The position numbers and the translations under genes are program-made. The notes below the pieces were generated by a model, which saw nothing but the letters and a program-made list of their open reading frames with translations, was not told the DNA's origin and did no database searches. From positions 43,395 to 107,394 of IMG/VR virus record IMGVR_UViG_3300015263_000944: DNA of 64,000 nt. One strand, written 5' to 3'. Positions 15,942 to 41,622 of this stretch are shown one piece after another; the stretch's first letter is position 1; the number at the start of each line of letters is the position of its first letter. Source of the DNA: a virus.

Positions 15942-15982
15942 GATGTTCCTCCATGCCCCACATCATATGGCAGTTTTGCGGG

Positions 15983-20379: not shown

Positions 20380-20408
20380 GAACTGATAATAGCGAAACGA
20401 GAGACAAA

Positions 20409-21317: not shown

Positions 21318-21759
21318 GAAACTCGCCTTCACTTGTCTCTACAAATGACCCGGCATTCTTAAAGTATCTCACGCTTTTGAATGCCGGGTATTTTATTTGA
21401 TACCACTTCTGGAACATCCCACGATGCTGCTCAAGATCAGCAACCGGCACCCTGTACTGAGCGATAATTTCCTCGTAATTGGCATAAAGAACATAGCAGG
21501 TGACGCCTCCCGGCAGAAATTCTCCCTGTTCGTCTCCTAGATGCCAGCCATCTAGTACAAATTTTGGATTCGCCTCACAGACAGATTTCACCTCCTGCAT
21601 CGCCGCCTCAAAAGACAACCCCAGAGTTTCCATCATGTGCCAAGGAAAGAGGGCATCAAAACAGATATAAGGTCGTGGGATCTGTTGGGCGAACGTGGTT
21701 TTACCCACACATGACATTCCCCAAATCACGATTCTGTCAGAGTGTTCTATCATAACCAT
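21292..21759 (-). CDS. P-loop kinase-like protein
   Basis: RIVIWGMSCVGKTT Walker A. Start set at M63/M65 because the upstream part overlaps the conserved N-terminus of the divergent GT2 gene. Confidence 0.5.
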   Translation of the reverse strand: MVMIEHSDRIVIWGMSCVGKTTFAQQIPRPYICFDALFPWHMMETLGLSFEAAMQEVKSVCEANPKFVLDGWHLGDEQGEFLPGGVTCYVLYANYEEIIAQYRVPVADLEQHRGMFQKWYQIKYPAFKSVRYFKNAGSFVETSEGEFLTFLEQSQ

Positions 21760-22446: not shown

Positions 22447-23274
22447 TTCTTCCACCCTCTTCTTGATGTATGCTCGGGGATTTCTGATCGCTGATTCGTA
22501 TGCCAAATTCTCTGCGATGATTAAAGGCAGATCCCACTTCAAGCAATACAAAACGAAATTGTCTAGCGATTTTTGCCAAAGCTCAACATCAGAAAGAGCT
22601 TTGTTGCCATCTCGCTTCTTGTGCGGCCAGTGTAGTTCAGGAACTTGCAAATCCACAAACTGACATCCTCCCACAGCAGCCGCATAATGGAAGTCTGTGT
22701 CGGCGTAGGCACCATGTCCGCAGTATGAGTGATCGACTCCTCCCAATCTGAGATAGGTGCTTTTTGTGAAAGCAGTGCTACCAGACATGACATTCTTGCC
22801 GGGCCGATGAATTGGGTCGCCATATCGAGCCTCAAAGCGAAGGCTCCCCATGAATTTCTCGTCCAAGAACACACCTTCTTCGTTCATGCTTTTCAAAAAC
22901 AACTTGCAGTCTTCAATAGACATTTCCTTGAGCATCTGGAAGTGGCTTGATGTGAAAACGAATACATCATCCTCAACAGCCGCCAAGACACGCTTCAGGA
23001 AATCGGCAGGAAGCAATCTGTCGGAGTCCAAATAGAGAACCTTCTCGTACTGGGCCGTGCAAACCCCAGCATCCCACATTCTCCCCCAACAGAACTTGTC
23101 GGCCACTCTGGGAACTTGGACATACTCCCACCCTTCTCGGAGGCGGTCAATTCTACCGTCAACCACGATGGTTTTCTGGCATACATCGTAAAACTCCATC
23201 TCTCTGAGACAAGACAAAGTGGCGTCCAAAGCCACCTCTCTGTCCGTCGAATACATTATGAAGATGCTGAGCAT
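22420..23274 (-). CDS. GT-A fold glycosyltransferase (DxD family paralog 1 of 3)
   Basis: YLDSDRLLP DxD block. Paralogous to 28971..29789 and 39164..39928. Confidence 0.6.
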   Translation of the reverse strand: MLSIFIMYSTDREVALDATLSCLREMEFYDVCQKTIVVDGRIDRLREGWEYVQVPRVADKFCWGRMWDAGVCTAQYEKVLYLDSDRLLPADFLKRVLAAVEDDVFVFTSSHFQMLKEMSIEDCKLFLKSMNEEGVFLDEKFMGSLRFEARYGDPIHRPGKNVMSGSTAFTKSTYLRLGGVDHSYCGHGAYADTDFHYAAAVGGCQFVDLQVPELHWPHKKRDGNKALSDVELWQKSLDNFVLYCLKWDLPLIIAENLAYESAIRNPRAYIKKRVEELRQSPRNL

Positions 23275-23311
23275 GGCTGATTTTTCCTCTCGGTGATCGC
23301 TACATACTTAC

Positions 23312-23950
23312 ATGAGAAGCTTCAAGGAATTTTTCGAACAACAATTGCAAGAAGCATCCCCGCCAAATGCCAGAATGGGCTCTCCATTGAAAGCAGGTGG
23401 CATGGGGACAGGTCTGCAAACCGGATCGGGTATTAACTTCCCATCAATGGGCATTGGAGCCATGCCGCTTACCGGCCCTCAAAGTATGGGACAGTGGCTT
23501 CAACACTACAGCAAACCACACGAAGCCCCAGAATGGAAACTTCTCGATAGTGCAGCCAGAGCAGCACAGAACATCGGCAACGCTGTCAGTCAGGGATCAA
23601 AGGAATGGGGTTCGGGCGCATATGTGACAGGAACTCCTGATCGTGGCGGCAAGATCATGAATCTTCAGAAAGACACCTTGCTCCATAGCGGCGTAGCCCG
23701 AGGATACCAGTTCTCGCCAGCCGAACTTCAATGGCTGCAAGACAAAGCCATCATTATCCCAGATCAAGCGAACCCACAACTGGTTCATCTGGATATGGGC
23801 AAACTCTACACAATGATGTTGGAAAAGCAACGTGGGCAGGAACTCAAGTATGGTGCAGCACAGGCTTACGACATGATCGCTGGTCGCATGGCTAATGGTG
23901 GCCCGATGTCGAATGCCGGAACCAACCTTGATCCATTTGGCGTTCGCTAA
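23312..23950 (+). CDS. Hypothetical Gly-rich protein with SFKEFFEQQ N-terminal motif
   Basis: 212 aa. Its N-terminus resembles those of the proteins at 51206(-) and 41744(+). Confidence 0.5.
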   Translation: MRSFKEFFEQQLQEASPPNARMGSPLKAGGMGTGLQTGSGINFPSMGIGAMPLTGPQSMGQWLQHYSKPHEAPEWKLLDSAARAAQNIGNAVSQGSKEWGSGAYVTGTPDRGGKIMNLQKDTLLHSGVARGYQFSPAELQWLQDKAIIIPDQANPQLVHLDMGKLYTMMLEKQRGQELKYGAAQAYDMIAGRMANGGPMSNAGTNLDPFGVR

Positions 23951-24753
23951 AAGATCATCGTCGCACTCTGAAGTGGATTCTGCTTCATGTACCACTGCCA
24001 AAACTCATGCACAGCGTCTCTGGCTTCGATCTTGTAGTCTTTCTTCTCCAACGTCTTAGATTTGTTTTCGAGTGGTGAAGTGATACCATCGATCATCCCC
24101 GCAATACAATGCAGGTAGTCTTCGTTGTCTGTCTCAATGAACTTCTGCACAAAGAAATCGAAGTGTGCTTTGGCCTTCTGAACAATATCGTTTCCACCCA
24201 TAAACGCACCGCTGTCCCACTCGAAGTTGTGAGATCTGTACGTCTGGTAAACATCCCGATACTTGTAATAGCAGAAATGACGACCCTGAACCCGATGCTC
24301 GCCTATGGGACGGGTTCTGAGATAATCGTGGATGCAAGTGTATCCCGCATCTGTGAGTCTCTGATAGTGCTCAACATCAGGGGTGGCACTTTCCTTAAAC
24401 ATGTGCTCTTGGGCTATCTTGGTACGCAAAACCTTTAAGGCCAGAATGGGACGGTCGGTGAGCGTATCGTGCAACCGGAACAAAATCGAGTGCCAATGTG
24501 GGTTGCGAAAATGCTTGCGAATGGCATTGGTGATACGAGGCCACGCATCATGGTGAAGTACGATATCTGCATCCAATGGAACAAAATACTCAGTCTTGAC
24601 GCCGCTCACCATTTGATTGAGTGCTTCAATCTGAGGATACACATTCCTCACCTCAAAGAACTCAATCTCGCTCCTGAATGGTTCAATGGCAGCGAGACAG
24701 TCTGGCTCCGAGAGTTCGCCACAAGTCATCAATACAAAGGTTACTTCATTCAT
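23947..24753 (-). CDS. Hypothetical protein, possible GT-A-like
   Basis: VPLDADIVL DxD-like block. Confidence 0.4.
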   Translation of the reverse strand: MNEVTFVLMTCGELSEPDCLAAIEPFRSEIEFFEVRNVYPQIEALNQMVSGVKTEYFVPLDADIVLHHDAWPRITNAIRKHFRNPHWHSILFRLHDTLTDRPILALKVLRTKIAQEHMFKESATPDVEHYQRLTDAGYTCIHDYLRTRPIGEHRVQGRHFCYYKYRDVYQTYRSHNFEWDSGAFMGGNDIVQKAKAHFDFFVQKFIETDNEDYLHCIAGMIDGITSPLENKSKTLEKKDYKIEARDAVHEFWQWYMKQNPLQSATMIF

Positions 24754-26572: not shown

Positions 26573-27568
26573 ATGCTGACACTAGAAAAAATCAACGAGC
26601 TTACACAAGGAATCGAGTACCATCTCAGAAAGCTGGAGAGCTTTGAGAGTGGACTCCGAGAAGTTAAGGCCGCTCTTGAAGAACTCAGACACGCCAAAGA
26701 ATCAGAATATCTCTGGGAGCTTCAGAAATACCGTGCCGATATTGAAGACATACGGCACCAACTGCGAAAGCGTGGGCTCCCGGATGCTGAGAAATACGAA
26801 ATCCAGTTCCGTAAGATCAAAGATTCACTCAACGAACACCAATGGCCTGTCGCCGTCAATCCAGAAGCCATCTGTAACGACGATGAGCGAGCCACAATTC
26901 GGGCTGAGTCAATTCTGGACCTCGTTGTTGGCGAACATCTCCAAGGCAGAAAGTTCCTCGACTATGGATGCGGTCAAGGCCATGTTGTACAAGCGGCTAT
27001 AAGCCGAGGAGCAATGGCAATTGGCTATGACATCAACGCCCAAGGGGAAGCGACCAACAACTTCGAGGATGTCAAAAAGCACGCACCTTTTGACATCATT
27101 TTGATGCACGACGTGTTGGATCACATTCAGAGCCTCAACCCCATGGAAGCCTTAGCCCAAGCAAAATCGGTGCTTGCTCCAGAAGGACGCATCTATGTCC
27201 GTAATCATCCGTGGTCATCCAAGCATGGCGGACATCTGTACGAACACATCAACAAAGCATATCTCCATCTGATCCTCGACGAAGTAGAGTTGACCCGGCT
27301 AGGAGGATTTGCCTGCGAGTACAACATCCGTGTCGTCAGGCCGCTGGAGACTTACCGTCATTGGTTTGACAGCGTTGGCCTTTCTGTAAAATCCGAGATT
27401 CCCATCAACAGTAATGTTGACGAATACTTTAAGAAGCCATCCTTTGTTCACGAGCGTCTATTGCATAACTGGGAAGGGGATGAGGCCGCAATGTTGTTCA
27501 ATATGGGAATTGACTTTGTAGAATACATCGTCGAATCAGACGGCATCTCAAATCAACAGATATTTTGA
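26573..27568 (+). CDS. Class I SAM-dependent methyltransferase (paralog 3 of 3)
   Basis: LDYGCGQGHV motif I plus HPWSSKHGGHLYEHINKAYLHLIL. Confidence 0.8.
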   Translation: MLTLEKINELTQGIEYHLRKLESFESGLREVKAALEELRHAKESEYLWELQKYRADIEDIRHQLRKRGLPDAEKYEIQFRKIKDSLNEHQWPVAVNPEAICNDDERATIRAESILDLVVGEHLQGRKFLDYGCGQGHVVQAAISRGAMAIGYDINAQGEATNNFEDVKKHAPFDIILMHDVLDHIQSLNPMEALAQAKSVLAPEGRIYVRNHPWSSKHGGHLYEHINKAYLHLILDEVELTRLGGFACEYNIRVVRPLETYRHWFDSVGLSVKSEIPINSNVDEYFKKPSFVHERLLHNWEGDEAAMLFNMGIDFVEYIVESDGISNQQIF

Positions 27569-28270
27569 GGTCATGTTATAGCCATAGGTCTCGCCTTTGG
27601 CTACCAGTAGGTCACGAATGTCCTTATCTGTGACATCCATGATGTCGAAATGGCCTTGCACTGGTTTGCGGAATGTGTTGACTGTTTTATCTGGATAGTC
27701 TGCTCCTGTCACACCAAGGAATTGTTTAAGAGGTTCGAGAGAGTCCTCGATTCTTACAAAGATGTCCCTATGTGGTTCAACGAGTTCATTCCAGAGAATG
27801 TAAAACAAAGATGCTTTATCATATGCAGGCATCTCTTGAGCCAGCCGGGGCATGTTCCTGTAGATAAACTGCTCGTAAGTATTGGGGCTTTCTTGGTTCT
27901 TGAAGTAATCTATGTGGTTGACAAAGCTATGAATCACTTTGGCGGGGTGACGCACCACATGAATAACCTTTGTGTCTTTCAAGATCTCTGCATTCAAATC
28001 TATCGCCGCCATGTAACTTGAATCGGCTCTCAATGCCCGAACATCTACATAGTCCCCTAGCTGAGTGACATTCTCGGGCGTCCAGCACATCTTTGAGGCA
28101 TTGCTTAAGGCAAGCGGGATCTCTCCCTTCAGCCGCCGCAACGCCCCTCTCAGACCTTGATAGTCGAAAACAGTTTCGTGCCCGCATGGGATTCCCCAAT
28201 CGGTCAGACACCTCGCTAAATACACAGTGCCGCAACGTCCGGTCCCGGTAATCAAATACTCAAGTTGCAT
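27548..28270 (-). CDS. Sulfotransferase family protein
   Basis: 5'-PSB-like ITGTGRCGT and 3'-PB-like KVIHVVRHP motifs. Confidence 0.65.
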   Translation of the reverse strand: MQLEYLITGTGRCGTVYLARCLTDWGIPCGHETVFDYQGLRGALRRLKGEIPLALSNASKMCWTPENVTQLGDYVDVRALRADSSYMAAIDLNAEILKDTKVIHVVRHPAKVIHSFVNHIDYFKNQESPNTYEQFIYRNMPRLAQEMPAYDKASLFYILWNELVEPHRDIFVRIEDSLEPLKQFLGVTGADYPDKTVNTFRKPVQGHFDIMDVTDKDIRDLLVAKGETYGYNMTSKYLLI

Positions 28271-28284
28271 GGTATATTAAAGCG

Positions 28285-28974
28285 ATGCCACACACGTTTT
28301 CTAAGATCATCAAATGGACCATCGGACAACCTCACAATGCTGGCTATTCGTGTTTAAGGCACGCCATGCTGACAATGAGAAGGTTGATCCCCGATGCTCA
28401 TCTCGTCGTCTGTCACAACGGCGAACGTGATCCCATCCCATGGCCCGCCGACGAGATCATCGATCAAAGGACGATCAACTTCAACCTACCCTACGACCCC
28501 AGCGGGCCGGGCTGGAAGCTCTATCCTCCACGATTGAACATCGATGCGTGGGAATTATGGTTGGATAACGATCTGATTCTCTACGAGATGCCGCCAGCCA
28601 TTGAGGAATTCTTCCAGAGCGATAGATTGTTGATTTCAGAAGCGTTCAAGCGTTCTTATTCCGAACGCTTTGATTCGCTGGTGCCACAAGGGGTCAACTA
28701 CAATAGCGGCATCTTGGGCCTGCCTCCCGGCTTCGACTTCGAGGCTCACCTGACGCCACTGATGCAGGATCGAGTCGGCTGGACAGACCATTTCGATGAA
28801 CAGTCGCTCGTGGCCCACATCTTCCACAAGCATGACCCGCTCATTGTCCCCATGAAGGAAGTGCAGGTTCTACAAGAGCGATACATCAAGGGAAGTCACG
28901 GGATTCATTTCGTGGGTTTGAATGGCGGGGATGTGAAGCACTGGAACCGCTACAAAAGCGAGAGGTTGTTTTGA
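28285..28974 (+). CDS. GT32-like glycosyltransferase paralog B
   Basis: IIKWTIGQ, WLDNDLIL, GILGLPPGFDF and GIHFVGLN blocks. Confidence 0.55.
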   Translation: MPHTFSKIIKWTIGQPHNAGYSCLRHAMLTMRRLIPDAHLVVCHNGERDPIPWPADEIIDQRTINFNLPYDPSGPGWKLYPPRLNIDAWELWLDNDLILYEMPPAIEEFFQSDRLLISEAFKRSYSERFDSLVPQGVNYNSGILGLPPGFDFEAHLTPLMQDRVGWTDHFDEQSLVAHIFHKHDPLIVPMKEVQVLQERYIKGSHGIHFVGLNGGDVKHWNRYKSERLF

Positions 28975-29789
28975 TCTCATTCATCATCATCTTCCATCCG
29001 AGCAGGATGAGAAACCTACAACAGACATTGAGGTTTCTCGCAAAGAGAGAACCTGTCCTCCACGAATTGATCCTTGTCTGTCAGACCAGTTGTGAGAATG
29101 TGGAGTCGCCTTTTCTGAAGACTCGCCAGATCAATCTGGGACTAGAGACCTATCACAAATCCCGCATGACCAACATTGGTGTCGAGCAAGCGTCAGGGGA
29201 CATCTTGGCTTTGCTCGACAGCGATAGGATTCTGCCGAAAAGTTACTTCGCAAAAATTGGAATGGACATCCGACCCAACCAGATTGTGACCTCAGAGAAG
29301 CTCTTCTTGCTTCTGGACGATTACACGGATGAGCAAATTGAGAACGAGCAAATCGAAGTGATGGAGGATTTTCGCAGTATCTCCAATGAAGGCCGTCGAA
29401 AGAACCTCTTCGCCGGGAATACCGTGATGCTCAAGGAAGACTACTTGAAGATGGGTGGCTATGATGAATCATACATCGGTTACGGCTATGCCGACAGCGA
29501 CATGACCTTGAAAGCCATGAGCACCGGAGCCGAAATCATCTGGACCCAAGATCCAGAGTTACACCTTCAGCACCATTGCGATGTGTGCTGGAAAGACAAG
29601 ATGGTTCCGCAGAACATCTTCAAGATCATGACGGCCACCAATGGATTTCGATTTCACCGAAAGTGGAAGATGCCGCTTGACGATGCCATCAAAAACCTCA
29701 CCCAAGAAATCGAGGCCGACATCAAATCGTATCCAGAAGAACTGGTGAAAGAGTATTGGCAGATGAAGAAGCCATTCATCCTGCTATAG
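28971..29789 (+). CDS. GT-A fold glycosyltransferase (DxD family paralog 2 of 3)
   Basis: LALLDSDRILP and GGYDESYIGYGYADSDMT blocks. Confidence 0.6.
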   Translation: MISFIIIFHPSRMRNLQQTLRFLAKREPVLHELILVCQTSCENVESPFLKTRQINLGLETYHKSRMTNIGVEQASGDILALLDSDRILPKSYFAKIGMDIRPNQIVTSEKLFLLLDDYTDEQIENEQIEVMEDFRSISNEGRRKNLFAGNTVMLKEDYLKMGGYDESYIGYGYADSDMTLKAMSTGAEIIWTQDPELHLQHHCDVCWKDKMVPQNIFKIMTATNGFRFHRKWKMPLDDAIKNLTQEIEADIKSYPEELVKEYWQMKKPFILL

Positions 29790-30633
29790 CCTGATACCGG
29801 GCCAGCACGTCAGTCGAATCCAAATCAAGACCTTCGCCAAAATAGGTGTGCAGCGGCGCACGTTGATGAGCGAAAGCATAATGACTGACGACCATGCCGC
29901 CGAAGATGGCGTTCTGCTTGCCGATCCGCTGGGGCTTGGTGCGGATCAACCAATCCTCCTCCTTGACGTATTCATCGCCCTCTTTCGCCACTTCGCCGTT
30001 GAACTTGGCGAATTCCGAGCCAAACCAACTGATGCAGTTGATCGACGCCATGTGGCCGATGGCTGGCTCTGGCAGCTTCAGAGACGAGAGATCAGGGTAG
30101 GCGTCGAAAAAGACGTTGTGAAGATGGAGACCGATTTGGCCCCCATGCGGCCTCCACTCCTTCTCTTCGTCATAGCCGCTTTGACAAAAGGGATGAGAAC
30201 GAGGAAAGATGCGAAAGTCCATGCAGTTGTTGACGATGACAGGGAAGACCAAGAAGAACTCTGGGTGCTCTCTGCGAAACTGAATGTAACTCTCGAAGGC
30301 ATCCACCTCGATGAAACACACATCGTCATCGATGCGAACGTAGATGGCATCGTCGTCGATGCAGTTTTGAAAGAATGGGGCGATCATGTGCCCCACATGA
30401 TGCACAGACGGGGTGCCTGTGGTCTCGAAGACACCTTCGACTTCAGACTGATAGATCAATTTGAAGTGCGGACTCAGGGAATGAATATGGTGGATGAACT
30501 CCAAATCGTCCGGGTTCTTCGTGTTGACCCAGAGATGGTGTTCATCCACCACATCCTTCAGTTTGAGAATGTAAGGAAGCTGAACCTCTAAGAACCGCTT
30601 CCGTCCGCAGACAGTGACTAGAATCGTTCTCAT
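29776..30633 (-). CDS. Hypothetical protein (DDD motif, possible glycosyltransferase)
   Basis: Start set at MRTILVTVCG (30633), giving ATGA coupling with the radical-SAM gene stop. VRIDDDVCF block. Confidence 0.45.
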   Translation of the reverse strand: MRTILVTVCGRKRFLEVQLPYILKLKDVVDEHHLWVNTKNPDDLEFIHHIHSLSPHFKLIYQSEVEGVFETTGTPSVHHVGHMIAPFFQNCIDDDAIYVRIDDDVCFIEVDAFESYIQFRREHPEFFLVFPVIVNNCMDFRIFPRSHPFCQSGYDEEKEWRPHGGQIGLHLHNVFFDAYPDLSSLKLPEPAIGHMASINCISWFGSEFAKFNGEVAKEGDEYVKEEDWLIRTKPQRIGKQNAIFGGMVVSHYAFAHQRAPLHTYFGEGLDLDSTDVLARYQAIAG

Positions 30634-32144
30634 TGACGTGGGGCGGCAACCAGTTCGAGTTCGACCTCTTCCTTCTTGGCACGACTTTCTTTGGTGAGCT
30701 TGTAGAGTTGCCGAATCTCTTGCGGCAAGACATACCGAGTTGACATACAACCCATGTCGTGGTTGCCGTCATACCCCTTCTCTGCGAACTGGTTGTTGGC
30801 TTTACAGCCACCCATGCACATCGGCAGAACATGGCACTCGTAGCACTCGGCATCGTTCATGGGATTGAACTCGTACTTGTCCAGTCCCTTCGATCCCTTC
30901 GTGGCGAATTCCAGATTTGTGATATGGCCGATGGCATGACTGTCATCGGTCGAGTGGTGCCAGCATTTGATGATCGCACCACTCGGGTTGACGACGAACT
31001 GAAAGTTCTTGTTAGCTGTGCAGGTGTCCCCGGTGAACCGCAGATTGCGTCGATACGCTTCCGCACTTCGCTCCTGTGACCACCGGTTCAAGCTCAACTC
31101 AAAGCGAGCGTGTTCTTCTTTGGTCATCTGGGAGCTACATGCCCCACCACAGCCATCGAAAATGGCGTTGGTGTAGACTCGCACGATGCCCCCGTCCTCA
31201 GACTTCTCCATCCACCCTCGCTCGTGAGCCAGTTCATACAAGGCTTCGACACGATCCTTGTTGATTTTGCTGACGTTGATCCGCAGGGCGACCTGAAGGC
31301 CAGCATCGTAACAGTGGCCGACGTTGCGAATGATGTCCTCAAAAGACGACTTCGGAGATTCTGGGGCCTGCCCGATGATCGGAAGCGATCCAAAATTTGG
31401 ATCGATCTTTTGTCGCTGAGCAATCTGATGCTCGTGCATGTCCTCGATTTTCATCTGGGAAAGATAGGGCCGCAGGGCGTCGTGGTCTTCTTTGATGCCA
31501 TCGACGGTGATTTGCAAACCCTTGATCTTGCACGCTTTCAGACGGTTGATTACATGCGGCGTGAGGGTGGTGCCATTCGTGATGATGAACGGCTCCCACG
31601 GCACGCCGAGCTTCGAGCACAACATGTCGATGTAAGCCGACAGCCGTTCGATGCAACGCATGTTGAGGGTTGGCTCGCCGCCAAACCAAGTAACGCCGAA
31701 ACTCTTCGTGGGCGTAGCTGTAAGGTACTCGTCGAGAAACCTCTCAACCTGTTCTTGCACCTCTTCTGTCATCATCCGCCATTCGGTTTTCTTCTCATAG
31801 CAGTAGGTGCAGCCGAGGTTGCAACGATCTGTGGTCACGATGGTCAGAGCTTTGGCGATGGGAGAATTGACGTTTTCGTCCCAAAATCTGCCAATCGTCT
31901 CCCGCTCATCGAAACCAGCCGGTTTGAGGAATCCGCCGTTCTTCAGGGTCTCCACAAAAGTTGGAGTCGCCAACGAAAAATCGCCGTCCGACAGACGGCG
32001 ATACACCTCTGCCTTTTCGTCACTCAGAAGAAGGAGCGTGCCCTTCATCTGACTATGTAGCAACCAACCATCGTCACACTCAACCAAGGTGTTGTAGCGT
32101 GAGACTTCGTGTGTAGGTCGGCTGCGCCAGAACCAATTGAACAT
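30630..32144 (-). CDS. Radical SAM / SPASM domain enzyme with roughly 100-aa N-terminal extension (possible RRE)
   Basis: CNLGCTYC (CxxxCxxC) at about residue 108, GGEPTLN motif, and a C-terminal Cys-rich SPASM region CYECHVLPMCMGGC. GGAGGAG RBS. Confidence 0.85.
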   Translation of the reverse strand: MFNWFWRSRPTHEVSRYNTLVECDDGWLLHSQMKGTLLLLSDEKAEVYRRLSDGDFSLATPTFVETLKNGGFLKPAGFDERETIGRFWDENVNSPIAKALTIVTTDRCNLGCTYCYEKKTEWRMMTEEVQEQVERFLDEYLTATPTKSFGVTWFGGEPTLNMRCIERLSAYIDMLCSKLGVPWEPFIITNGTTLTPHVINRLKACKIKGLQITVDGIKEDHDALRPYLSQMKIEDMHEHQIAQRQKIDPNFGSLPIIGQAPESPKSSFEDIIRNVGHCYDAGLQVALRINVSKINKDRVEALYELAHERGWMEKSEDGGIVRVYTNAIFDGCGGACSSQMTKEEHARFELSLNRWSQERSAEAYRRNLRFTGDTCTANKNFQFVVNPSGAIIKCWHHSTDDSHAIGHITNLEFATKGSKGLDKYEFNPMNDAECYECHVLPMCMGGCKANNQFAEKGYDGNHDMGCMSTRYVLPQEIRQLYKLTKESRAKKEEVELELVAAPRQ

Positions 32145-32176
32145 ACTTCTCCTCCAGTGAGATCAGCGGCAGCGAT

Positions 32177-32374
32177 TTAGGTCAAGCCAGTACAGGGGGC
32201 CTGAAACGTGCAGTCAGCGAGCTTGAGACCCTTGAGATCTTTGGGGTCTCCCTGTTCCGCTGGCTCATGGACGATTTCGACGCCTTCGTCCTTCTTGGCA
32301 TCTTTGTCTTTGTCGGTGTTGCTCTCAGTGGTAGACTTAGAGAACAACGATGTGAGTCGTTCGAAGAAACTCAT
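32177..32374 (-). CDS. Candidate RiPP precursor peptide (65 aa; C-terminal ADCTFQAPCTGLT)
   Basis: AAGGAGGT RBS 6 nt before the ATG. Charged leader-like N-terminal part. Two Cys in the last 13 residues. It lies 33 nt upstream of the radical SAM/SPASM gene on the same strand. Confidence 0.5.
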   Translation of the reverse strand: MSFFERLTSLFSKSTTESNTDKDKDAKKDEGVEIVHEPAEQGDPKDLKGLKLADCTFQAPCTGLT

Positions 32375-32420
32375 CGAGTACCTCCTTGGTGGATGATGTT
32401 GTCAGAATTCGACGCTCGTT

Positions 32421-32448
32421 ATTCTAGCAAACAACCCGTATTTCGCAA
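32421..32448 (-). promoter_or_regulatory. Putative sigma70-like promoter for the peptide and radical-SAM operon
   Basis: On the minus strand: TTGCGA, 16-nt spacer, TAGAAT. It sits about 45 nt upstream of the peptide ATG. Confidence 0.4.
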
Positions 32449-32457
32449 GGTTGAATC

Positions 32458-33030
32458 GTGAACAATTACCTGAAACCATATCCGCTCTTTGTGATCGAAA
32501 ACTTCGCCAACGTCGCTGACTTACAAATTCCGAGCCTCAACAGGGTGAGCCGGGACGGCAACCTGAAGTATGAAGAGCGGCAAAATAGCTGGCCCGAGAT
32601 CGATGACCTGATCACCCACTTCTTACAACATGCCGTGCTTCCCTACATCCGTCCTCTGGAAAACGAGTTCCATTTCAAGCTCCCCGAAGACAGATCATAC
32701 GGCTGCGTGATCATGCAGGCAAGAGAGGGTTACGAATTACGGCCCCACACCGACAGCCGAAACCGCCTCGTCTCGGGGGTTTTGTACTTGGAGTCCGACG
32801 TGAAGGGCGGCGAACTGGTCTTCTGTGACCACCCAAACCTTCCCAATCTTCCCCATCTTATGGAACAGGATGTGCCGGATCTTGTGAGAATCGAGCCCAA
32901 ACCGGGAACCTTCGTCTGCTGGCTCAACTCTTTCAACTCCTATCACTACACAACCCCCATGAAAGGCACACGCAATTCTCTCTACATAAGTTGGGAATCA
33001 AAAACGCCGATCTGGGGTGAGAGTGCTTAA
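32458..33030 (+). CDS. 2OG-Fe(II) oxygenase (prolyl 4-hydroxylase-like)
   Basis: HTD ... GGELVF ... H pattern with LRPHTDSRNRLVSGVLYL. GTG start. Confidence 0.7.
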   Translation: MNNYLKPYPLFVIENFANVADLQIPSLNRVSRDGNLKYEERQNSWPEIDDLITHFLQHAVLPYIRPLENEFHFKLPEDRSYGCVIMQAREGYELRPHTDSRNRLVSGVLYLESDVKGGELVFCDHPNLPNLPHLMEQDVPDLVRIEPKPGTFVCWLNSFNSYHYTTPMKGTRNSLYISWESKTPIWGESA

Positions 33031-34387
33031 GTTTTCGAACACACAATCAAAATTTGGACACTGGTTCAACAGCTTCAAGGGCTGGCAAAAGCATCGACGG
33101 CAACTTGTCTTTGTAGAGCCAGACCAACTTAATCAATATCGAGAAGAAGGTCTGGCCCATATCCAGAAATACTATCGTCGGTCGATGCCATTGCCATCGA
33201 GCGTCTTGCCGACACCGCTCTACAGCTATCACAGCAAAGAACTTCGAACATCTGGCTCTCAATCGTCCATTCGGCGACGATACTTGTACTCAAGCCCTCA
33301 ATACGAGTGCATTGAAAATCACCATTGGTGGAGAATCGAGTCGGCTCATGGACTCGAAGAGCCCGGCATTGTATTCGATCTGGGATATTCGCCAACCTAC
33401 TTGCAGCACGAAGAATACCGAGAGAGCTACATCAGTGACTACGATGGCGTTCACGACCCCACAGGCCGACACAACACACATAAGCTAATTTGGTATCGGC
33501 GAAACACCGGCTCTTCGGCACTCGTTGAAACTCTGCAAGAAGCCCGAGATCAAAACCCAAAAATTGTAATGTGCTCGCCCAGCCAAATCGAATTCCTGTA
33601 TGCTCGCTCCGAGGGTAAAGTCCAATTCGATTGCCCGCTCATCTCGACTCGTGAGACACTCTATCCTCATGTCAGAAAAATGGCATTGAAAATGTTTCCC
33701 AAGGTCATAGACAAGATGAGATGTTGGGACGGAGGACTGACCTTCTATGAATGTGCCGAAGGTCGGTTACATGTTTGTGATGAACTTTGTCACGTTGAAC
33801 AACTTGATGATGGACTGCTGGCTTGCACAGATTACTTCAACTTCTCAACGCCATTTCTCAGATATCTAAACGGCGATGCGGGATCGTTGGCTTGTGGACA
33901 TTGTTCATGTGGGGTTTATGGAAACTATCTCACCAAATTCGATGGCGCATCACGATCCCTGATTTGGATCGGAGACTATGCTATCCCCGGATCGCTAGTC
34001 GTAGAAGACATCAATAGTTTGTTCGAGTTCGGCGGCTGTGCCTCGAACGTGTTCTCCCTTTCGATGATCGAGAAGTATCACGGGAACCCATTTGAGGGCT
34101 ATGACATTCTGTATCGAGTTATTCAACACAAAGATGAATCAATCGAATTTCTCTACCATTCCAAACCATCACTGGGAGATACGCAGTTAGCTGCTCTGCG
34201 AGACGGCTTGAACTTCATATTCTATCGACAGGTCAGCGAGGGTCTCACTATTCATCAACACGAATCTGCATTTATGGTTGCGCCCAAACCTCTTGCCATC
34301 TCAGCCGATCCAGATCTGATGTCACACACTCGGGGAGCCAGACACAAGAGCCGATGTGTGGAGTCTCACATAAGCAAAGGTGTGTAA
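33017..34387 (+). CDS. Hypothetical large protein (possible adenylate-forming-like)
   Basis: 456-aa ORF with several Cys clusters. No firm family assignment. Confidence 0.45.
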   Translation: MRVLKFSNTQSKFGHWFNSFKGWQKHRRQLVFVEPDQLNQYREEGLAHIQKYYRRSMPLPSSVLPTPLYSYHSKELRTSGSQSSIRRRYLYSSPQYECIENHHWWRIESAHGLEEPGIVFDLGYSPTYLQHEEYRESYISDYDGVHDPTGRHNTHKLIWYRRNTGSSALVETLQEARDQNPKIVMCSPSQIEFLYARSEGKVQFDCPLISTRETLYPHVRKMALKMFPKVIDKMRCWDGGLTFYECAEGRLHVCDELCHVEQLDDGLLACTDYFNFSTPFLRYLNGDAGSLACGHCSCGVYGNYLTKFDGASRSLIWIGDYAIPGSLVVEDINSLFEFGGCASNVFSLSMIEKYHGNPFEGYDILYRVIQHKDESIEFLYHSKPSLGDTQLAALRDGLNFIFYRQVSEGLTIHQHESAFMVAPKPLAISADPDLMSHTRGARHKSRCVESHISKGV

Positions 34388-34950
34388 CTCGCTTTATTGC
34401 GATGTGGAAATTCAACATCAGGAATGTCTTTACCCAAGAAACCACATAACTTTTCCCAACCATCGCCGTCGCAGATGTTCATCACCAACAGATCATCTGG
34501 GCGATCCTTGAAGTATTCCATCACCGATTTAGTGTGCTTCTCGTAAATGTGTGCAAACCGCTCACGTTGAAAATAGAAGGTGCCAAATGTAACAGCGGTG
34601 ATGAATAAAGCAAACTTGGATCTCGTCTCCATGCCATCCCGCCAATCTCTGTGGTTTCCTAACCAGTGGTAATTCACAGATCGCAACCAAGAATTCACAT
34701 CACGTTCTGTGAGGATGAACTTGCTGCCGGGGAAAGCCTCGTCCAACTCGACGTAGAACGGAGCGACACTAAGATCGCAAGCCCCATCACATTGCTTGAC
34801 CACATCCAACTCATAGTCGCCATGAATCAATTGTTCATATGTTCGATCATCGTGCGGATAATGAACGATGTGAACTCCCAGATGGTGCAGAGCCACATAT
34901 AAGCTGGTTGTGCCAGTCCTCTGAAGACCTATGCCGAAAACTTTGTTCAT
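34366..34950 (-). CDS. Sulfotransferase family protein
   Basis: MNKVFGIGLQRTGTTSL (5'-PSB) and FILTERDVNSWLRS (3'-PB-like) motifs. Start taken at M31. Confidence 0.65.
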   Translation of the reverse strand: MNKVFGIGLQRTGTTSLYVALHHLGVHIVHYPHDDRTYEQLIHGDYELDVVKQCDGACDLSVAPFYVELDEAFPGSKFILTERDVNSWLRSVNYHWLGNHRDWRDGMETRSKFALFITAVTFGTFYFQRERFAHIYEKHTKSVMEYFKDRPDDLLVMNICDGDGWEKLCGFLGKDIPDVEFPHRNKASYTPLLM

Positions 34951-35489
34951 TTCAAATATCCAAACGATGCTGAGATTCTGGGAATGAGTCCTACCACTTC
35001 TTGGCACTCGTGATAGTGTTTGTTGGCGAGGAAATACCACGCATCTCCAGCATTCAGATCCAGCACATCATCTTCTATCACTGGCAGACCTCCTGAATCC
35101 GGCTTGGAGATCAAAAGGTTGAATCTCATATGGTCGTAGTTATCATAGCCATAGTTGTCATCAATGTGACGTGGCACGCTGCAACCTTCGCAAACAAACT
35201 CGATGTTCGCCACACAATACGGATGATACATCTTCTGAGATTTTGTCAGTTGGAGTCCAAAATCTCTCAATTCATAGAACGGTTCGGGGATTCTGTCAGA
35301 AACGAAACACGTCTCTTTTTTGTCAAAATCTGGCCGCTTGTCGAACACCGACAATCTTAAAGTACCACCTTTGGTTCCATTCCCCTGCCAAATTCCCGGA
35401 ATTGCCAATTCCTTGTGATCCAAACACCACTTGTGTATTTGGCTCAATTTCGTATAATTCAGGACATTGCGACATACTGTGTAGCTCAT
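34947..35489 (-). CDS. Hypothetical protein, possible cupin-fold oxygenase
   Basis: PRHIDD ... KHYHE pattern (HxD ... H). Confidence 0.4.
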   Translation of the reverse strand: MSYTVCRNVLNYTKLSQIHKWCLDHKELAIPGIWQGNGTKGGTLRLSVFDKRPDFDKKETCFVSDRIPEPFYELRDFGLQLTKSQKMYHPYCVANIEFVCEGCSVPRHIDDNYGYDNYDHMRFNLLISKPDSGGLPVIEDDVLDLNAGDAWYFLANKHYHECQEVVGLIPRISASFGYLK

Positions 35490-35523
35490 GCTTTATTTAG
35501 AGTGAGCCCAGAAAGGAAACAAA

Positions 35524-36288
35524 ATGAGCAGCGACCGAATCTATGCCCGAGTAATGAGTGAAGGAACCCCGACCAACCGCCAACCATGGATGTTGGCGAC
35601 GGCTCGACACATGGCTCGGCTTAGCGTAGACCGATTCCAAAAATTGCATTCAGACGCACCAAGAACCAATCTTGATCTGGGCTGCGGCGTCGGCGAATTC
35701 ACAAAAATGTTGACAGCCGCCGAATTCCAGTGTGTCGGGATCGACCAGAATGAGATCTTCGTTGAAGTTGCCCGAGAGCGAAACCCCAAGGGGAACTATG
35801 GGGTTGGCGACTTCTTGAAGGCTGATCTGGGTGGCGAGTTTGGCATCGTCAGTGCCACACATGAAGTGTTCAACATGACAGAGAACTACGGGACATTTCT
35901 GAGTCGAGCATCTCGGCGAGTGGCCCCCGGTGGATTCTTTGTCTTTGATATCATTACTCCCCGAGGCTTCCAAACATGGCAGGACATACAAATCCAAGAG
36001 CGTTCGGATTTCGTGATGATCCAAAAGTGCATCTACGACGAGGAACTTCGACGAGCCACCATCAAGTTGACGGGCCTTGTCCAAAATGGCGAGCATTATG
36101 ATCGCTTCGATGTGGTCGGCGATGTCTTCAATCACGACATCAACATGGTGGCCGAAACGGTTGCAGAGCTTGGGATGAAGATCGAGTTCTTCCCTGAATG
36201 GGGCAACTTGGTGGATGACGGCTTCGAGAATCCAGACAATCCAACGGTAGATAAGACAACGAGCTTGCTTGCTGTGTTGACCAAATGA
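35524..36288 (+). CDS. Class I SAM-dependent methyltransferase
   Basis: Motif I LDLGCGVGEF; 254 aa. Confidence 0.75.
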   Translation: MSSDRIYARVMSEGTPTNRQPWMLATARHMARLSVDRFQKLHSDAPRTNLDLGCGVGEFTKMLTAAEFQCVGIDQNEIFVEVARERNPKGNYGVGDFLKADLGGEFGIVSATHEVFNMTENYGTFLSRASRRVAPGGFFVFDIITPRGFQTWQDIQIQERSDFVMIQKCIYDEELRRATIKLTGLVQNGEHYDRFDVVGDVFNHDINMVAETVAELGMKIEFFPEWGNLVDDGFENPDNPTVDKTTSLLAVLTK

Positions 36289-36848
36289 TTGTATGCCACG
36301 AACCCAAATTTGCTTTCATCCGTAATCCGAAAACGGCGTCCCGATCCGTAACAAAAATCCTCCAAGACAATTTCACGGTTTGGGATTGTTCCGATTACCA
36401 CGGCTGGATCTTGCCCGAGGCGTGTCAGGATTACTTCACATTCATGTTTGTGAGGAATCCATTCAGTCGCACTGTCTCGGCATGGTTGCACGTCTGCGAA
36501 GATCGCATCAGAGTGGGAAGAGCCTCCTCCCCATCGCTGGCTCAGTTTGTTGATTACGGCGGATTTGGGCTCCACAACGCAAGGAACTATTTCAAGCAAT
36601 CGGATTTGCTGAAATGGATCGAAGCCGATACCAAAAGTAAGGTGACAATCTTAAAGTACGAGAATTTGGCAGAAGAGATTCGGAATCTCCCATTCATGCC
36701 AGAAGGAATCGAGTTGCCGCACATTGGCAACTCTGGAAAAGACTGGATGTCTTTTTACACGCCCGAGATCGAGGAAAGAGTTCGCCAAGCTCTGGCAGAG
36801 GATTTTGAAACCTTCGGATATCACGACAGGATTTCAATTTCCATGTGA
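36285..36848 (+). CDS. Carbohydrate sulfotransferase-like (Sulfotransfer_2 type)
   Basis: FAFIRNPKTASRS (5'-PSB) and FMFVRNPFSRTVSAW (3'-PB RDPxxRxxSA-like) motifs. Confidence 0.65.
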   Translation: MIVCHEPKFAFIRNPKTASRSVTKILQDNFTVWDCSDYHGWILPEACQDYFTFMFVRNPFSRTVSAWLHVCEDRIRVGRASSPSLAQFVDYGGFGLHNARNYFKQSDLLKWIEADTKSKVTILKYENLAEEIRNLPFMPEGIELPHIGNSGKDWMSFYTPEIEERVRQALAEDFETFGYHDRISISM

Positions 36849-39163: not shown

Positions 39164-39928
39164 ATGCAAGCATCCTTTGTCGTTCGATTCCATAGCCGCC
39201 GTCTGGACAACCTTCACCAATTGCTCAGATTCTTGGAGAGATGGCATCACAACGTAATTTCAGAGTCCCAATTGGTCCTAGTTTGTCAGGACTCCTGCGA
39301 CCGAATCCCAAATGGCTTCGAGAGATACGACCACTTCAACATGGAACTCGACTGCATGAAGTTGCCAGTCGTTACAAATTTTGGAGTGGAAAAGTCACTG
39401 GCCGACAAGATTGTGTTGCTTGATGGTGATCGGGTGGCCCCCGCTGGATACTACCAGCGAGTTCTCAAACAAGTCGAGTTGGGCATTCAGATCACTTGCA
39501 AAAACATACAAAACTTGCCAAGGCCAACTGAGGATTGGGAGATCGAACGAGGCAAATACGATTATATCGAGGAGCATCGTAGTGAGGAAAAGATGCCGGG
39601 CCGGAAGTGCATGTGGTCTGGGAATACCACCTTCATGAAGCAGGATTTCTACCGAGCCGGTCGAATGGATGAAGCGTATCGTGGCTACGGGTTCGAGGAC
39701 CATGACATGACCTACACAATGGAGGCCGCTGGTGTCAAATCTATCTATCTGCCCGAAGAGATTGAACTTCATCTGTGGCACGAAAGACAAACGTATGGCG
39801 TAGGCGACGAGGCAACAAAAAAGGGAATGTTCATAGACAACGGATTGTTCTTCTGTAAGAAGTGGAAACAGCCGCTTCCAGAATTTCTAAGGGAAGACAT
39901 CGCCAATCACAGGAAGGCATGGATATGA
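39164..39928 (+). CDS. GT-A fold glycosyltransferase (DxD family paralog 3 of 3)
   Basis: IVLLDGDRVAP and GRMDEAYRGYGFEDHDMTYT blocks. Confidence 0.6.
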   Translation: MQASFVVRFHSRRLDNLHQLLRFLERWHHNVISESQLVLVCQDSCDRIPNGFERYDHFNMELDCMKLPVVTNFGVEKSLADKIVLLDGDRVAPAGYYQRVLKQVELGIQITCKNIQNLPRPTEDWEIERGKYDYIEEHRSEEKMPGRKCMWSGNTTFMKQDFYRAGRMDEAYRGYGFEDHDMTYTMEAAGVKSIYLPEEIELHLWHERQTYGVGDEATKKGMFIDNGLFFCKKWKQPLPEFLREDIANHRKAWI

Positions 39929-40860
39929 GAGATCACATCTATTATCACCAATGGTCCGAACTAGGCGATGGTCCACCATATTGTAATATGAGGTGCCCCA
40001 CCATCGTATCCATCGCAACACTTCGTGGCGTCAACCCAAATGTGCCCATCACCGTCTTGGACAAAAGCGAGACGCCTCAAGATTGGGGAGAATTTCCAGA
40101 GAAGCTAAACTTCGATGTAGCTCACGATCCGACGTTCTCGTGTGAACGATACAAAAATGTAGTCGCAGGATACAAACATCTGTCTCGTTTCCCAGACTTG
40201 GTGTCCTACACCAAAGACAAAGACGAACGAGTTGTGTATGTGGACGCCGATGTCTTCTGGTTTAGAGATCCCTTCCCACTGGCAGTTACATCGAGCAAAT
40301 TGTGTATCGATGGTTGGAACACGGGGTTCTTCTACTACGAGGCACGCTATGCCAACAAATGGTTTGATCCATTTGAGGCATACATGAAATCCGCCATCTA
40401 TTCAGAAGAGTTGCGGGATGTGCTTAAACAACACGTCAATTACGATGATTGGTATGTGGTGTTTGACGAACAGATCATCACATATCTCAAGAAGACAAAC
40501 CCACAACTCATTGAAATCATTCCAGATTGTGAGCACATCACCGGCAGTCGATTGGAAGAGCTTGATCCAGACACAGCGAAAATGCTTCACTTCAATGGCA
40601 TTATGGTGCATGACAACTATCATCGCACACGACATGCCAGAGGTCTAGCAGGCATCATCATCCAAGAGTTCTATGACAACATCTGTAAATCCCTCGACGC
40701 ATCCGACATCGAGAAGATTTTCACGCCACATGCTATGAGACTCTATGGGAGCAAACGATTCTCGCTCTTTAGGAATCTGGCTCGATTGTTAGAAACGAAA
40801 ACGGACAGGCTTTATCGTCTCGATAAATGCCTGTCCGTTCCACGACTCGATCTTATTTGA
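39925..40860 (+). CDS. Nucleotide-diphospho-sugar transferase family protein
   Basis: VVYVDADVFWFRDP DxD block. ATGA coupling with the upstream gene. Confidence 0.55.
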   Translation: MRDHIYYHQWSELGDGPPYCNMRCPTIVSIATLRGVNPNVPITVLDKSETPQDWGEFPEKLNFDVAHDPTFSCERYKNVVAGYKHLSRFPDLVSYTKDKDERVVYVDADVFWFRDPFPLAVTSSKLCIDGWNTGFFYYEARYANKWFDPFEAYMKSAIYSEELRDVLKQHVNYDDWYVVFDEQIITYLKKTNPQLIEIIPDCEHITGSRLEELDPDTAKMLHFNGIMVHDNYHRTRHARGLAGIIIQEFYDNICKSLDASDIEKIFTPHAMRLYGSKRFSLFRNLARLLETKTDRLYRLDKCLSVPRLDLI

Positions 40861-41622
40861 ACAGCAAGTCGAACTCACCCTTCATGATGCCCTTGACGTT
40901 TCCCGTCTTGGTGTCCAGCCGATGATCGACAACTCGGCTTTCCATGAAGTTGTAGGTGCGGATTTTCCCGCTCCGGTGGCCTCCCTGCAACTGTTCTTTC
41001 CTGTAGGCTGCGTACTCCGAATCAGCGGCCTCTTTGGCTTGTTCGTAGACACGGCCTTGAATGATCCGACGTGCTTCTCGCACATTGCTGTGGAAATCTC
41101 TGCCGTTAATAACAACCTTGATCCCTGTGGGGATGTGGGTCATTCGGCAGCCCGACATCGTTTTGTTCTGATGCTGTCCACCTTTACCGCCCAGATTGAC
41201 GGCCTCGATTTCCAGATCATTGTCGGCGATCTTCACATCCACTTCTGGCGGCAGTGGTAAAACTGCAACCGAGACGAAAGATGTCTGCTTACGGCCCTTG
41301 CTTTCCGTAGGTGGAATACGCTGGACACAGTGTTTGCCCGGCTCATGCCGGAACGCACGACCTGCGCCTTTGCCCCAGATACGGGCCATCATATGGCCGA
41401 AATCAGAGTGAATCAGTTCGGATTTCAGGTTCAGTGAGCGAGAATACCGTGCATAGGCTGCGAATAATTCGTCAACAAAGATCTTGCTGTCGTCGCCGCC
41501 CTCGCCGTGTCGGACCTCTAAGATGATCTCGTCGGCGTCAAAGAAACCTCCGCTCCTTCAGATCGGTAGCGGTTGGGGAGTTAAAGACACCTCCCGGCGT
41601 TTTTCTTGTGCTTCTTACCCAT
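40853..41622 (-). CDS. Peptide chain release factor 2-like protein lacking domain 1 (PrfH-like), expressed via programmed +1 frameshifting
   Basis: GGQ motif (GGKGGQHQNKT). RF2-like blocks LEVRHGEGG, HCVQRIPPTESKGRKQTSF and KIRTYNF. This frame is closed 6 codons upstream of the CTTTGAC site. The ATG at 41622 has an AAGGAGA RBS in another frame. Confidence 0.7.
41537..41556 (-). other. prfB-type +1 frameshift site 2 (GGAGG-TTT-CTT TGA C)
   Basis: SD-like GGAGG, a 3-nt spacer, then CUU UGA C. Homology to RF2 starts exactly at the codon after the shift. Confidence 0.6.
41580..41599 (-). other. Putative +1 frameshift site 1 (GGGAGG-TGT-CTT TAA C) at codon 13-14 of the ATG-initiated frame
   Basis: Same architecture as the E. 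coli prfB site, but with UAA. Confidence 0.4.

Follow-up and report, generated by a model that had tools for sequence, protein, structure and literature searches.

Sulfotransferase genes have been listed among viral auxiliary genes (PMC8290583, PMC10580990, PMC12285232), the phage examples including Sulfotransfer_3 genes in metagenomic viral genomes of OM43 phages and in Synechococcus phage S-SRM01, and genes in viral operational taxonomic units from glacier ice (PMC10580990, PMC8290583). The function of the phage enzymes 'remains unclear' (PMC10580990). The nearest described system belongs to giant viruses: in the Megavirinae glycosylation clusters of Moumouvirus australiensis (ma457–ma468) and Cotonvirus (ORF 712–728), a sulfotransferase (Ma461) and a bifunctional sulfate adenylyltransferase (SAT)/adenosine 5'-phosphosulfate (APS) kinase (Ma457) lie among glycosyltransferases (GTs), with functions that are proposed and untested (PMC10117803). 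Here we describe a 64,000-nucleotide stretch of viral DNA (the window; positions 43,395 to 107,394 of IMG/VR virus record IMGVR_UViG_3300015263_000944), very probably part of an uncultivated huge phage, in which three genes, A, B and C, predicted to encode sulfotransferases of three unrelated families, are embedded in a large island of GT, methyltransferase and other tailoring genes.

As in the Megavirinae clusters, for which sulfation of virion glycans was proposed, viral sulfotransferases are found here among many GTs and sugar-modifying enzymes. The two systems differ in three respects. Megavirinae carry the SAT/APS kinase and full nucleotide-sugar pathways, whereas here no gene for synthesis of the sulfate donor 3'-phosphoadenosine-5'-phosphosulfate (PAPS) was recognised in the 81 kb covered by gene calls and a single nucleotide-sugar gene (RmlC-like) is present; Megavirinae have one sulfotransferase, and the present locus three or four from different families; and the Megavirinae host is eukaryotic, the host here bacterial. 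With the reported phage auxiliary genes, including PHROGs family phrog_3347, the locus shares PAPS-type sulfotransferase genes in tailed-phage genomes, but those are isolated genes in small or medium-sized phages, in contrast to several families clustered in a conserved, multi-GT island of huge phages. The preliminary description of the window had called such enzymes unusual for phages. This was overstated, given the known viral auxiliary genes, the PHROGs family and the presence of the A family on 58 IMG/VR viral contigs. Sulfation and glycosylation are both unmentioned in a 2020 huge-phage survey and a 2026 jumbo-phage review (PMC7162821, PMC13282480). Virus-encoded sulfotransferases in glycan-tailoring clusters are known already, and the present locus is a modest extension of them; what distinguishes it is the three or four sulfotransferase families in one island, the lack of a nearby PAPS gene and the link to a small-peptide/radical S-adenosylmethionine (SAM) module. 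The three genes are as follows.

27548–28270, minus strand: sulfotransferase A, 240 amino acids, Sulfotransfer_3-like, convergent with methyltransferase gene MT2
34366–34950, minus strand: sulfotransferase B, 194 amino acids from ATG, Sulfotransfer_4 family
36285–36848, plus strand: sulfotransferase C, 187 amino acids, compact Sulfotransfer_2 member

These open reading frames (ORFs) had been picked out as sulfotransferase genes in the preliminary description; all are there, and each passes its Pfam sulfotransferase threshold. The assignment is nearly certain for B, which scored 138.5 bits as Sulfotransfer_4 (cut-off 22.8, E = 3.6e-40) and matched three solved structures, SgdX2 (1.4e-13), Cpz8 (7e-12) and the Schistosoma oxamniquine sulfotransferase (~1e-9). 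The segments GLQRTGTTS and TERDVNSWLRS of B align with GFGRTGTASL and TVRDPVQWHRS of SgdX2/Cpz8, corresponding to the 5'-phosphosulfate-binding (5'-PSB) and 3'-phosphate-binding (3'-PB) motifs. Cpz8, a caprazamycin enzyme (9kf1), is a solved homologue that aligns with B over its full length and shares both PAPS-binding motifs with it; the PDB holds a Cpz8 entry with bound 3'-phosphoadenosine-5'-phosphate. Identity to Cpz8, SgdX2 and the Schistosoma enzyme is low, and these enzymes, from actinomycete or helminth contexts, have small molecules as substrates. The B reading frame reaches position 35040 from a GTG; the ATG at 34950, used by the JGI gene call, is the likelier start.

C is very likely a sulfotransferase. 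It scored 45 bits as Sulfotransfer_2 (cut-off 22, E = 1.9e-11), and was the sole one of the three recognised by PHROGs (phrog_3347, 'galactose-3-O-sulfotransferase'). All eight homologues of C that were found carry PF03567. In the homologue alignment K16 of its 5'-PSB motif (NPKTAS) and R57, N58, P59, R62 and S65 of its 3'-PB motif are invariant, and in fold searches with an AlphaFold2 (AF2) model of C (predicted local distance difference test score, pLDDT, 84), ranks 1–11 are sulfotransferases.

A is also likely to be a sulfotransferase. Its Sulfotransfer_3 match is marginal (28.9 bits against a cut-off of 27, E = 1.7e-6), and it additionally matches Sulfotransfer_1 and Sulfotransfer_4, both below threshold. 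Homologues of A (N = 87) are nearly all metagenomic. In an alignment of 49 of them, G9, R12 and G14 of the 5'-PSB motif (GTGRCGT), R107, P109 and S115 of the 3'-PB motif (RHPAKVIHS) and likewise H31 and E32 are invariant; in alignment with the sulfotransferase domains of CurM and OLS, the 3'-PB segment is matched by RHPYAVIES. When the AF2 model made from this alignment (pLDDT 94) was compared with the PDB by Foldseek, ranks 1–32 were all sulfotransferases, nucleotide kinases appeared from rank 33, and the best superposition was on the Sulfotransfer_4-type natural-product group (Cpz8, SgdX2 and the Schistosoma oxamniquine sulfotransferase).

The same two motifs, a P-K/R-x-G-T/S-T-type loop after the first β-strand (5'-PSB) and an Arg...Ser pair after a β-strand (3'-PB), were found in A, B and C, at invariant family positions; the preliminary description had named them. 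A NCBIfam search with the three proteins gave nothing useful. Could they be generic P-loop kinases or inactive relics? Two observations lean that way: A clears its Pfam threshold by only 1.9 bits, and TM-scores of its fold matches are modest (0.45–0.5, within an overall range of 0.4–0.5). The fold matches of C have weak E-values (0.017–0.7). But the loops GTGRCGT, QRTGTT and NPKTAS are typical of the 5'-PSB, none of the three sequences contains a Walker A motif (GxxxxGK[ST]), and the Arg and Ser of the 3'-PB do not vary. In the fold searches of A and C every sulfotransferase ranks above the kinases, and homologues with as little as 25% identity keep the motifs, a sign of purifying selection. 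We consider such an explanation barely credible; the P-loop kinase reading was rejected on the fold searches of A and C, and the preliminary preference for sulfotransferases over kinases holds.

A fourth sulfotransferase gene was recognised in the flank of the window.

L006 18325–19056, minus strand: fourth sulfotransferase, 243 amino acids, Sulfotransfer_3 at 35.8 bits (cut-off 27)

It lies ~7 kb upstream of window position 1 (~18.8–19.5 kb on the source contig), with a SPASM protein, two weak radical-SAM genes, a carbamoyltransferase and a nucleoside-deoxyribosyltransferase-like gene as neighbours. Pairwise comparison of A, B, C and the fourth protein showed no significant similarity; they are therefore independent acquisitions rather than duplicates, and recent duplication was ruled out as their origin.

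The surroundings of the three genes point to glycan chemistry. A dense block of tailoring genes extends over ~4.4–40.9 kb of the window, making an island of more than 35 kb that is broken by metabolic or replication-type genes (phosphoribosyl pyrophosphate (PRPP) synthetase, FolD, ParB). The window contains at least nine Pfam-supported GT genes (six GT2, two Glyco_transf_7C, one GT9), and the island ~15 GT-like genes. Five class-I methyltransferase genes (20409, 24750, 26573, 35524 and 37826), two 2-oxoglutarate (2OG)-type oxygenase genes and a DUF707 gene are also present. The main members outside the peptide module (see below) are as follows.

4456, 7060, 7923, 18257 and 21742: GT2-type genes (Pfam), with GT2-like unknowns also present
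18257–24753: island core upstream of A, comprising GT2-like genes, methyltransferase gene MT0 and unknowns, in an order kept in related loci L008–L011 at 45–66% identity
24750–25772, minus strand: SAM methyltransferase MT1 (Pfam, synteny), a paralogue of MT2 and MT0
26573–27568, plus strand: SAM methyltransferase MT2 (Methyltransf_23, 54.4 bits), a conserved neighbour of A
28971–29789, plus strand: Glyco_transf_7C glycosyltransferase, GT-A, GT2-like and CHGN-like (Pfam), conserved in L117 and L118
37826–38401, plus strand: methyltransferase MT4 (Methyltransf_24, 61.9 bits)
39164–39928, plus strand: second Glyco_transf_7C-type glycosyltransferase (Pfam, synteny)
57080, 59283 and 62080: downstream sugar genes, namely a GT9, a GT2 and an RmlC-like gene

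The conserved core runs from the GT2 gene designated GT2d to A (18.2–28.3 kb). The adjoining 28.3–36.8-kb segment, which holds B and C, is variable between relatives, and in a 613-kb relative it is swapped for LicD, a cytidylyltransferase, another radical SAM/SPASM gene and Gly_transf_sug. By synteny, the convergent pair of A and a Methyltransf_23 gene recurs in ~15 viral loci. Bacterial homologues of A, among them ones on Planctomycetota chromosomes at 40–42% identity, are adjoined by GT2 or GT9 genes. Similarly, homologues of B at 49 metagenome loci are adjoined by GT2, Methyltransf_24 or C-like genes, the Methyltransf_24 gene standing beside B-type sulfotransferases in L073, L088, L094 and L095. 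The closest IMG/VR relative (L010; IMGVR_UViG_3300042197_004429, 177 kb) carries at positions 1–10000, in place of the variable segment, a cassette of DegT sugar aminotransferase, Sulfotransfer_2, Methyltransf_24, PhyH dioxygenase, GT47, Sulfotransfer_1/3, carbamoyltransferase and GT8 genes, all within 10 kb of its A homologue, so that three sulfotransferases are present when the A homologue is counted. Its combination of sulfate, methyl and carbamoyl tailoring is reminiscent of Nod-factor decoration. In a seed-based census at least 5 of 59 A-bearing loci had two or three sulfotransferase-like ORFs within ±10 kb, and cassettes with more than one sulfotransferase thus recur in the lineage, though in a minority of loci.

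We consider a sulfated, methylated glycoconjugate the most likely product of the island, with moderate confidence; the case is clearest for A, a member of the conserved glycosyltransferase/methyltransferase module. In the mechanism proposed, A, B and C would be soluble cytoplasmic PAPS-type sulfotransferases from three unrelated families. Each would hold PAPS with its N-terminal 5'-PSB loop and the Arg/Ser motif of its 3'-PB, and would sulfate a hydroxyl or amine group on whatever the neighbouring genes make. That product would be a glycoconjugate assembled in the cytoplasm, sulfated, O- or N-methylated and, by analogy with the relatives, perhaps carbamoylated; judging from the 81 kb, the donor would be drawn from the sulfate-assimilation pool of the host. 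The analysis shows directly the families of the enzymes, their conserved motifs and fold, the gene neighbourhood with its synteny, and the lack of PAPS genes in the 81 kb; the use of PAPS, the nature of the acceptor, the phage origin and the dependence on the host are what we infer. A 'heavily decorated anionic glycan' had been proposed in the preliminary description, partly from the methyltransferases. The ~15 GT-like genes and the L010 cassette make that proposal plausible; one of the methyltransferases, at 35524–36288, however, belongs to the peptide/radical-SAM module and is coupled to C, so that some of the sulfate may be placed on something other than a glycan.

What might the acceptor be? 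Transmembrane segments were not predicted in any of the ~35 island proteins between 7 and 41 kb, and the gene calls contained no initiating phosphoglycosyltransferase, flippase, polymerase or ABC exporter. Since genes for export or a lipid carrier are lacking there, the acceptor is more likely, on this analysis, to be a protein, of the phage or the host, or some other target in the cytoplasm than a surface polysaccharide linked to undecaprenyl phosphate. Cytoplasmic acceptors have precedent in giant viruses and mycobacteriophages (PMC10117803; Freeman 2023, cited in PMC12619734). As cited there, virion glycosylation in mycobacteriophages and glycan hypermodification of phage DNA (Freeman 2023, Pyle 2024, cited in PMC12619734) likewise involve cytoplasmic phage GTs that act on phage components and not on exported polysaccharide. 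They differ in using one to few GTs. We know of no sulfation in either mycobacteriophage glycosylation or DNA hypermodification.

The same genes bear on the idea that the island remodels a host surface polysaccharide (lipopolysaccharide O-antigen, capsule or exopolysaccharide), adding sulfate and methyl groups via the carrier lipid and export systems of the host and so blocking superinfection or altering receptors. Serotype conversion by phage GTs is established (PMC12619734, citing Markine-Goriaynoff 2004), and the bacterial homologues of A and B occur in clusters of surface-glycan type. The island itself, however, has no initiating phosphoglycosyltransferase, flippase, polymerase, ABC exporter or any membrane protein, its ~15 GT-like genes far exceed typical modification cassettes, and no integrase or lysogeny gene was seen. 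We therefore regard surface remodelling as unlikely and keep to the cytoplasmic glycoconjugate.

Next, the source of PAPS was considered. The preliminary description had reported three sulfotransferase genes unaccompanied by PAPS-synthesis genes, and this is borne out for the window and its flanks. A motif scan of the six-frame translation of the window gave no CysC, CysD, CysN, Sat, CysH or CysQ signature; tblastn with E. coli CysC, CysN, CysD and CysH gave no match in the window, its flanks or 60+ related loci; and no APS_kinase, ATP-sulfurylase or PAPS_reduct Pfam match was found on the JGI/Logan gene calls at positions 17,469–98,763, which make up the 81 kb covered on the 100,747-bp JGI source contig Ga0247387_10000286. 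Likewise, tblastn found no PAPS gene within ±10 kb of 58 A-bearing viral loci. A 238,888-bp contig carries proteins identical to A, B, C and the radical SAM enzyme, so the genome is at least 239 kb and the negative result covers about one third of it. The ~60% of the genome that is unseen could hold cysC or sat; because of this, host dependence for PAPS cannot be concluded from these sequences, with which it is consistent but by which it is unproven.

The phage might make PAPS itself, from APS kinase and ATP sulfurylase genes elsewhere in its genome, as in Megavirinae. Only 81 kb of at least 238,888 bp was inspected, a sulfotransferase is accompanied by a bifunctional SAT/APS kinase in both Moumouvirus and Cotonvirus (PMC10117803), and in locus L088 (JGI2171J19970_10004290; viral or cellular) a B-type enzyme is joined to an APS kinase: at 2104–3233 the stop of the Sulfotransfer_4 gene overlaps the start of the kinase gene, in the order GT2, Methyltransf_24, Sulfotransfer_4, APS kinase (120 bits), phosphonate genes (PEP mutase, Ppd, Fe-ADH) and UDP-glucose dehydrogenase. 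This coupling ties the B family to PAPS. On the other hand, the known examples keep the PAPS gene in the same cluster, whereas here none is present in 81 kb or near the 58 A-bearing viral loci, and a pattern scan of limited sensitivity found APS kinase on only four IMG/VR contigs, none with A-, B- or C-type sulfotransferases. In the same scan L122, the same-sample counterpart of L024, differed in GC content (0.41 vs 0.46) and shared no genes with it. Synthesis of PAPS by the phage is, on balance, doubtful.

Between A and C lies a set of genes of another kind, which we refer to as the peptide/radical-SAM module, together with genes that adjoin it.

30630–32144, minus strand: radical SAM/SPASM enzyme (rSAM), 504 amino acids, Radical_SAM 67.5 bits (Pfam), peptide-maturase type
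32177–32374, minus strand: candidate carrier peptide or precursor of a ribosomally synthesized and post-translationally modified peptide (RiPP), 65 amino acids, with a C-terminal Cys-x6-Cys
32458–33030, plus strand: 2OG-Fe(II) oxygenase (2OG-FeII_Oxy_3, 39.2 bits), also upstream of the peptide in L118
33185–34387, plus strand: F390-synthetase-like putative adenylate-forming enzyme (u400), 400 amino acids, weak match to TIGR02304 (2e-7)
34947–35489, minus strand: 180-residue protein (u180) with no family match, translationally coupled to B
35524–36288, plus strand: SAM methyltransferase MT3 (Methyltransf_11/25/23, Pfam)

The 65-residue ORF has a strong ribosome-binding site (AAGGAGG), ends in ...LKGLKLADCTFQAPCTGLT and stands directly upstream of the rSAM gene. 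The best NCBIfam matches of rSAM are all RiPP maturases (TIGR04463 at 215.7 bits, then CefB, FlmE/OhkG, Clo7bot, geopeptide and PapB), with scores below every equivalog cut-off. An assignment of rSAM as an anaerobic sulfatase maturase was rejected (68 bits vs 216 for RiPP maturases; no sulfatase in the window). Separately, L118 encodes a PF00884 sulfatase-family protein (14948–16210, minus strand) near its rSAM module, an RmlC-like gene and UDP-galactopyranose mutase, which has no counterpart in the window. Homologues of rSAM (N = 79) are in many cases on contigs of 200–600 kb; a search of viral contigs by peptide patterns found no rSAM relatives. For the 400-residue enzyme a PDB search gave no match, and for MT3 the top PDB match was the lanthipeptide methyltransferase LahSB (1.9e-6), a weak and generic match. 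The u180 protein contains an H-x-D motif (RHID), which suggests a cupin or 2OG-oxygenase-like enzyme.

The set of peptide, rSAM, u400 and MT3 recurs on four relatives (L117, 362 kb; L118; L123, 215 kb; L124, 208 kb), contigs of 56–362 kb. The five peptides align over the core G.E(V/I)(V/I)..P...DP.(D/E)LKG.KL(A/V)DC....G(G)C(P), and a library search added four more matches, three of them short (56–65 amino acids), giving ~8 members in all. The module appears to be a so far undescribed huge-phage system for a RiPP or a carrier peptide. It resembles radical SAM/SPASM RiPP systems, where too a short Cys-containing precursor directly precedes a SPASM maturase bearing an N-terminal recognition region and tailoring enzymes lie nearby, and differs from them in that the peptide family is new, is found in huge-phage genomes and has maturases scoring below the equivalog cut-offs. 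To our knowledge, an associated sulfotransferase is not a feature of the TIGR04463, CefB, FlmE/OhkG or PapB families.

This module is where the glycoconjugate reading meets its strongest competitor, in which B and C, with MT3, the 2OG oxygenases and u400, would tailor the 65-residue peptide into a sulfated, methylated RiPP-like product or a peptide-derived small molecule, leaving A alone on the glycan. Several facts count against a common glycan for all three enzymes. The start of C overlaps the stop of the module gene MT3 (ATGA), indicating translational coupling; B adjoins the module, its start overlapping the stop of u180 (ATGA) and the gene abutting u400, and resembles natural-product sulfotransferases; in L123 and L124 the four-gene module stands beside ribonucleotide reductase and SbcCD genes with no GT near, and is therefore autonomous; and only one nucleotide-sugar gene, the RmlC-like one, is present. 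Because C is coupled to the peptide-rSAM module and B adjoins it, C, and less clearly B, may tailor the peptide. Such a role also accords with the strong ribosome-binding site of the peptide directly upstream of rSAM, the RiPP-maturase matches of rSAM, the retention of the four-gene set in L117, L118, L123 and L124, the contiguous rSAM-MT3-Sulfotransfer_2 order on one strand in L117, and the nearest solved relatives of B and MT3, which are natural-product sulfotransferases and a lanthipeptide methyltransferase, respectively.

The distribution of the genes argues in the opposite direction. A sulfotransferase is adjacent to the module in the window and L117, but lies 4.5 kb off in L123 and is absent near it in L124, and L118 has an STD-like ORF 3.4 kb away, so that of the four related rSAM modules just one, that of L117, has a sulfotransferase next to it. 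B homologues at the 49 loci never co-occur with rSAM, being adjoined by GT and methyltransferase genes. In the window, L117 and L118, GT-A genes are interspersed with those of the module, and rSAM scores far under every equivalog cut-off. Sulfotransfer_2, to which C belongs, is classically a carbohydrate family (see also PMC11625862). We hold this peptide-directed role of B and C to be a tentative alternative to the glycoconjugate. A new huge-phage pathway to a peptide natural product, built on the conserved peptide of ~60 amino acids with Cys-x(4-7)-Cys, rSAM, the adenylate-forming enzyme and the methyltransferase, whose product in some members, the present one included, would be a RiPP or glycopeptide sulfated by C and perhaps B, possibly glycosylated and dependent on host PAPS, is rather unlikely.

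We asked whether the element is indeed a phage. The strongest evidence for a huge-phage affiliation is the distribution of the A family on the 58 IMG/VR viral contigs, which include contigs of 527, 459, 398 and 341 kb. Consistently, 13–20 genes around A are syntenic, at 45–66% identity, with IMG/VR loci L009–L011 and the 613-kb JGI contig. The gene content is also of jumbo-phage type: ClpX (phrog_4339, 310 bits), UvrD helicase (phrog_1967) and PRPP synthetase all match PHROGs, and ParB, an HNH endonuclease, tRNA-Arg(CCT), a truncated RF-1-like protein, PTH2, NDK, NADAR, CsrA and FolD are present. RlaP and ClpX match jumbo Caulobacter phages and the 595-kb uncultured phage LR756511.1; the phage matches of the large UvrD helicase are at only ~26% identity. 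The phage appears to have no cultured relative in the collection: megablast of 17 kb against GenBank phages gave no match, nor did tblastn of A, B and C against 50,697 GenBank phage records or tblastn of a 434-residue unknown protein against GenBank phages.

Alternatively, the contig could be a fragment of a bacterial chromosome, a megaplasmid or another element. Among the genes in the 81 kb none was recognised as encoding a capsid, portal or terminase protein, the contig itself does not occur in the IMG/VR and JGI collections that were scanned, PHROGs returned nothing for 9 of 10 unknown proteins (the tenth gave a tRNA-amidotransferase-like match), and the A family is found on Planctomycetota chromosomes too. 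Against this, synteny with IMG/VR viral contigs is strong, the gene content is typical of jumbo phages and most ORFs are orphans. A non-phage origin is quite improbable, and we retain the huge-phage assignment.

If active, these enzymes would mean that very large phages spend tens of kilobases on sulfated, methylated glycoconjugates and possibly a modified peptide, and that virus-directed glycan chemistry, studied mainly in giant eukaryotic viruses and mycobacteriophages, extends to sulfated phage structures. Phage fitness would then be tied to host sulfur assimilation through the activated-sulfate pool. Compact soluble sulfotransferases (187–240 amino acids) of three families could also be of use in biocatalysis.

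Some further observations concern relatives and the rest of the window. The 546,147-bp contig L126 (CALFYV010000090.1, GC 35%), binned as a Bacteriovoracaceae metagenome-assembled genome, carries a syntenic island with GT2d, u287, MT0, A, u267, a C-like gene and RlaP; it is probably a huge-phage genome inside that bin, and the bin is possibly a hint at the host of a related phage. At 40853–41392 (minus strand) the window encodes the truncated release-factor-like protein (179 amino acids; PCRF end, RF-1 domain, GGQ motif), homologues of which flank the island in L008, L011 and L031. In the 53593–57099 region tRNA-Arg(CCT) (minus strand) overlaps the start of a 1152-residue Laminin_G_3 (LamG) gene, followed by a GT9-like gene; the LamG protein is possibly a fibre or adhesin and a candidate target of glycosylation. 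Finally, a set of host-like genes at 2249–12414 and 58631–62589 and in L005 encodes ClpX, an M50 peptidase, an ion channel, CsrA (~9661–9855), PRPP synthetase, FolD, an NMN-transporter-like protein, NADAR, a histidine phosphatase, an acyl carrier protein, an HODM-like protein and RmlC, with NDK and PTH2 just beyond the window.

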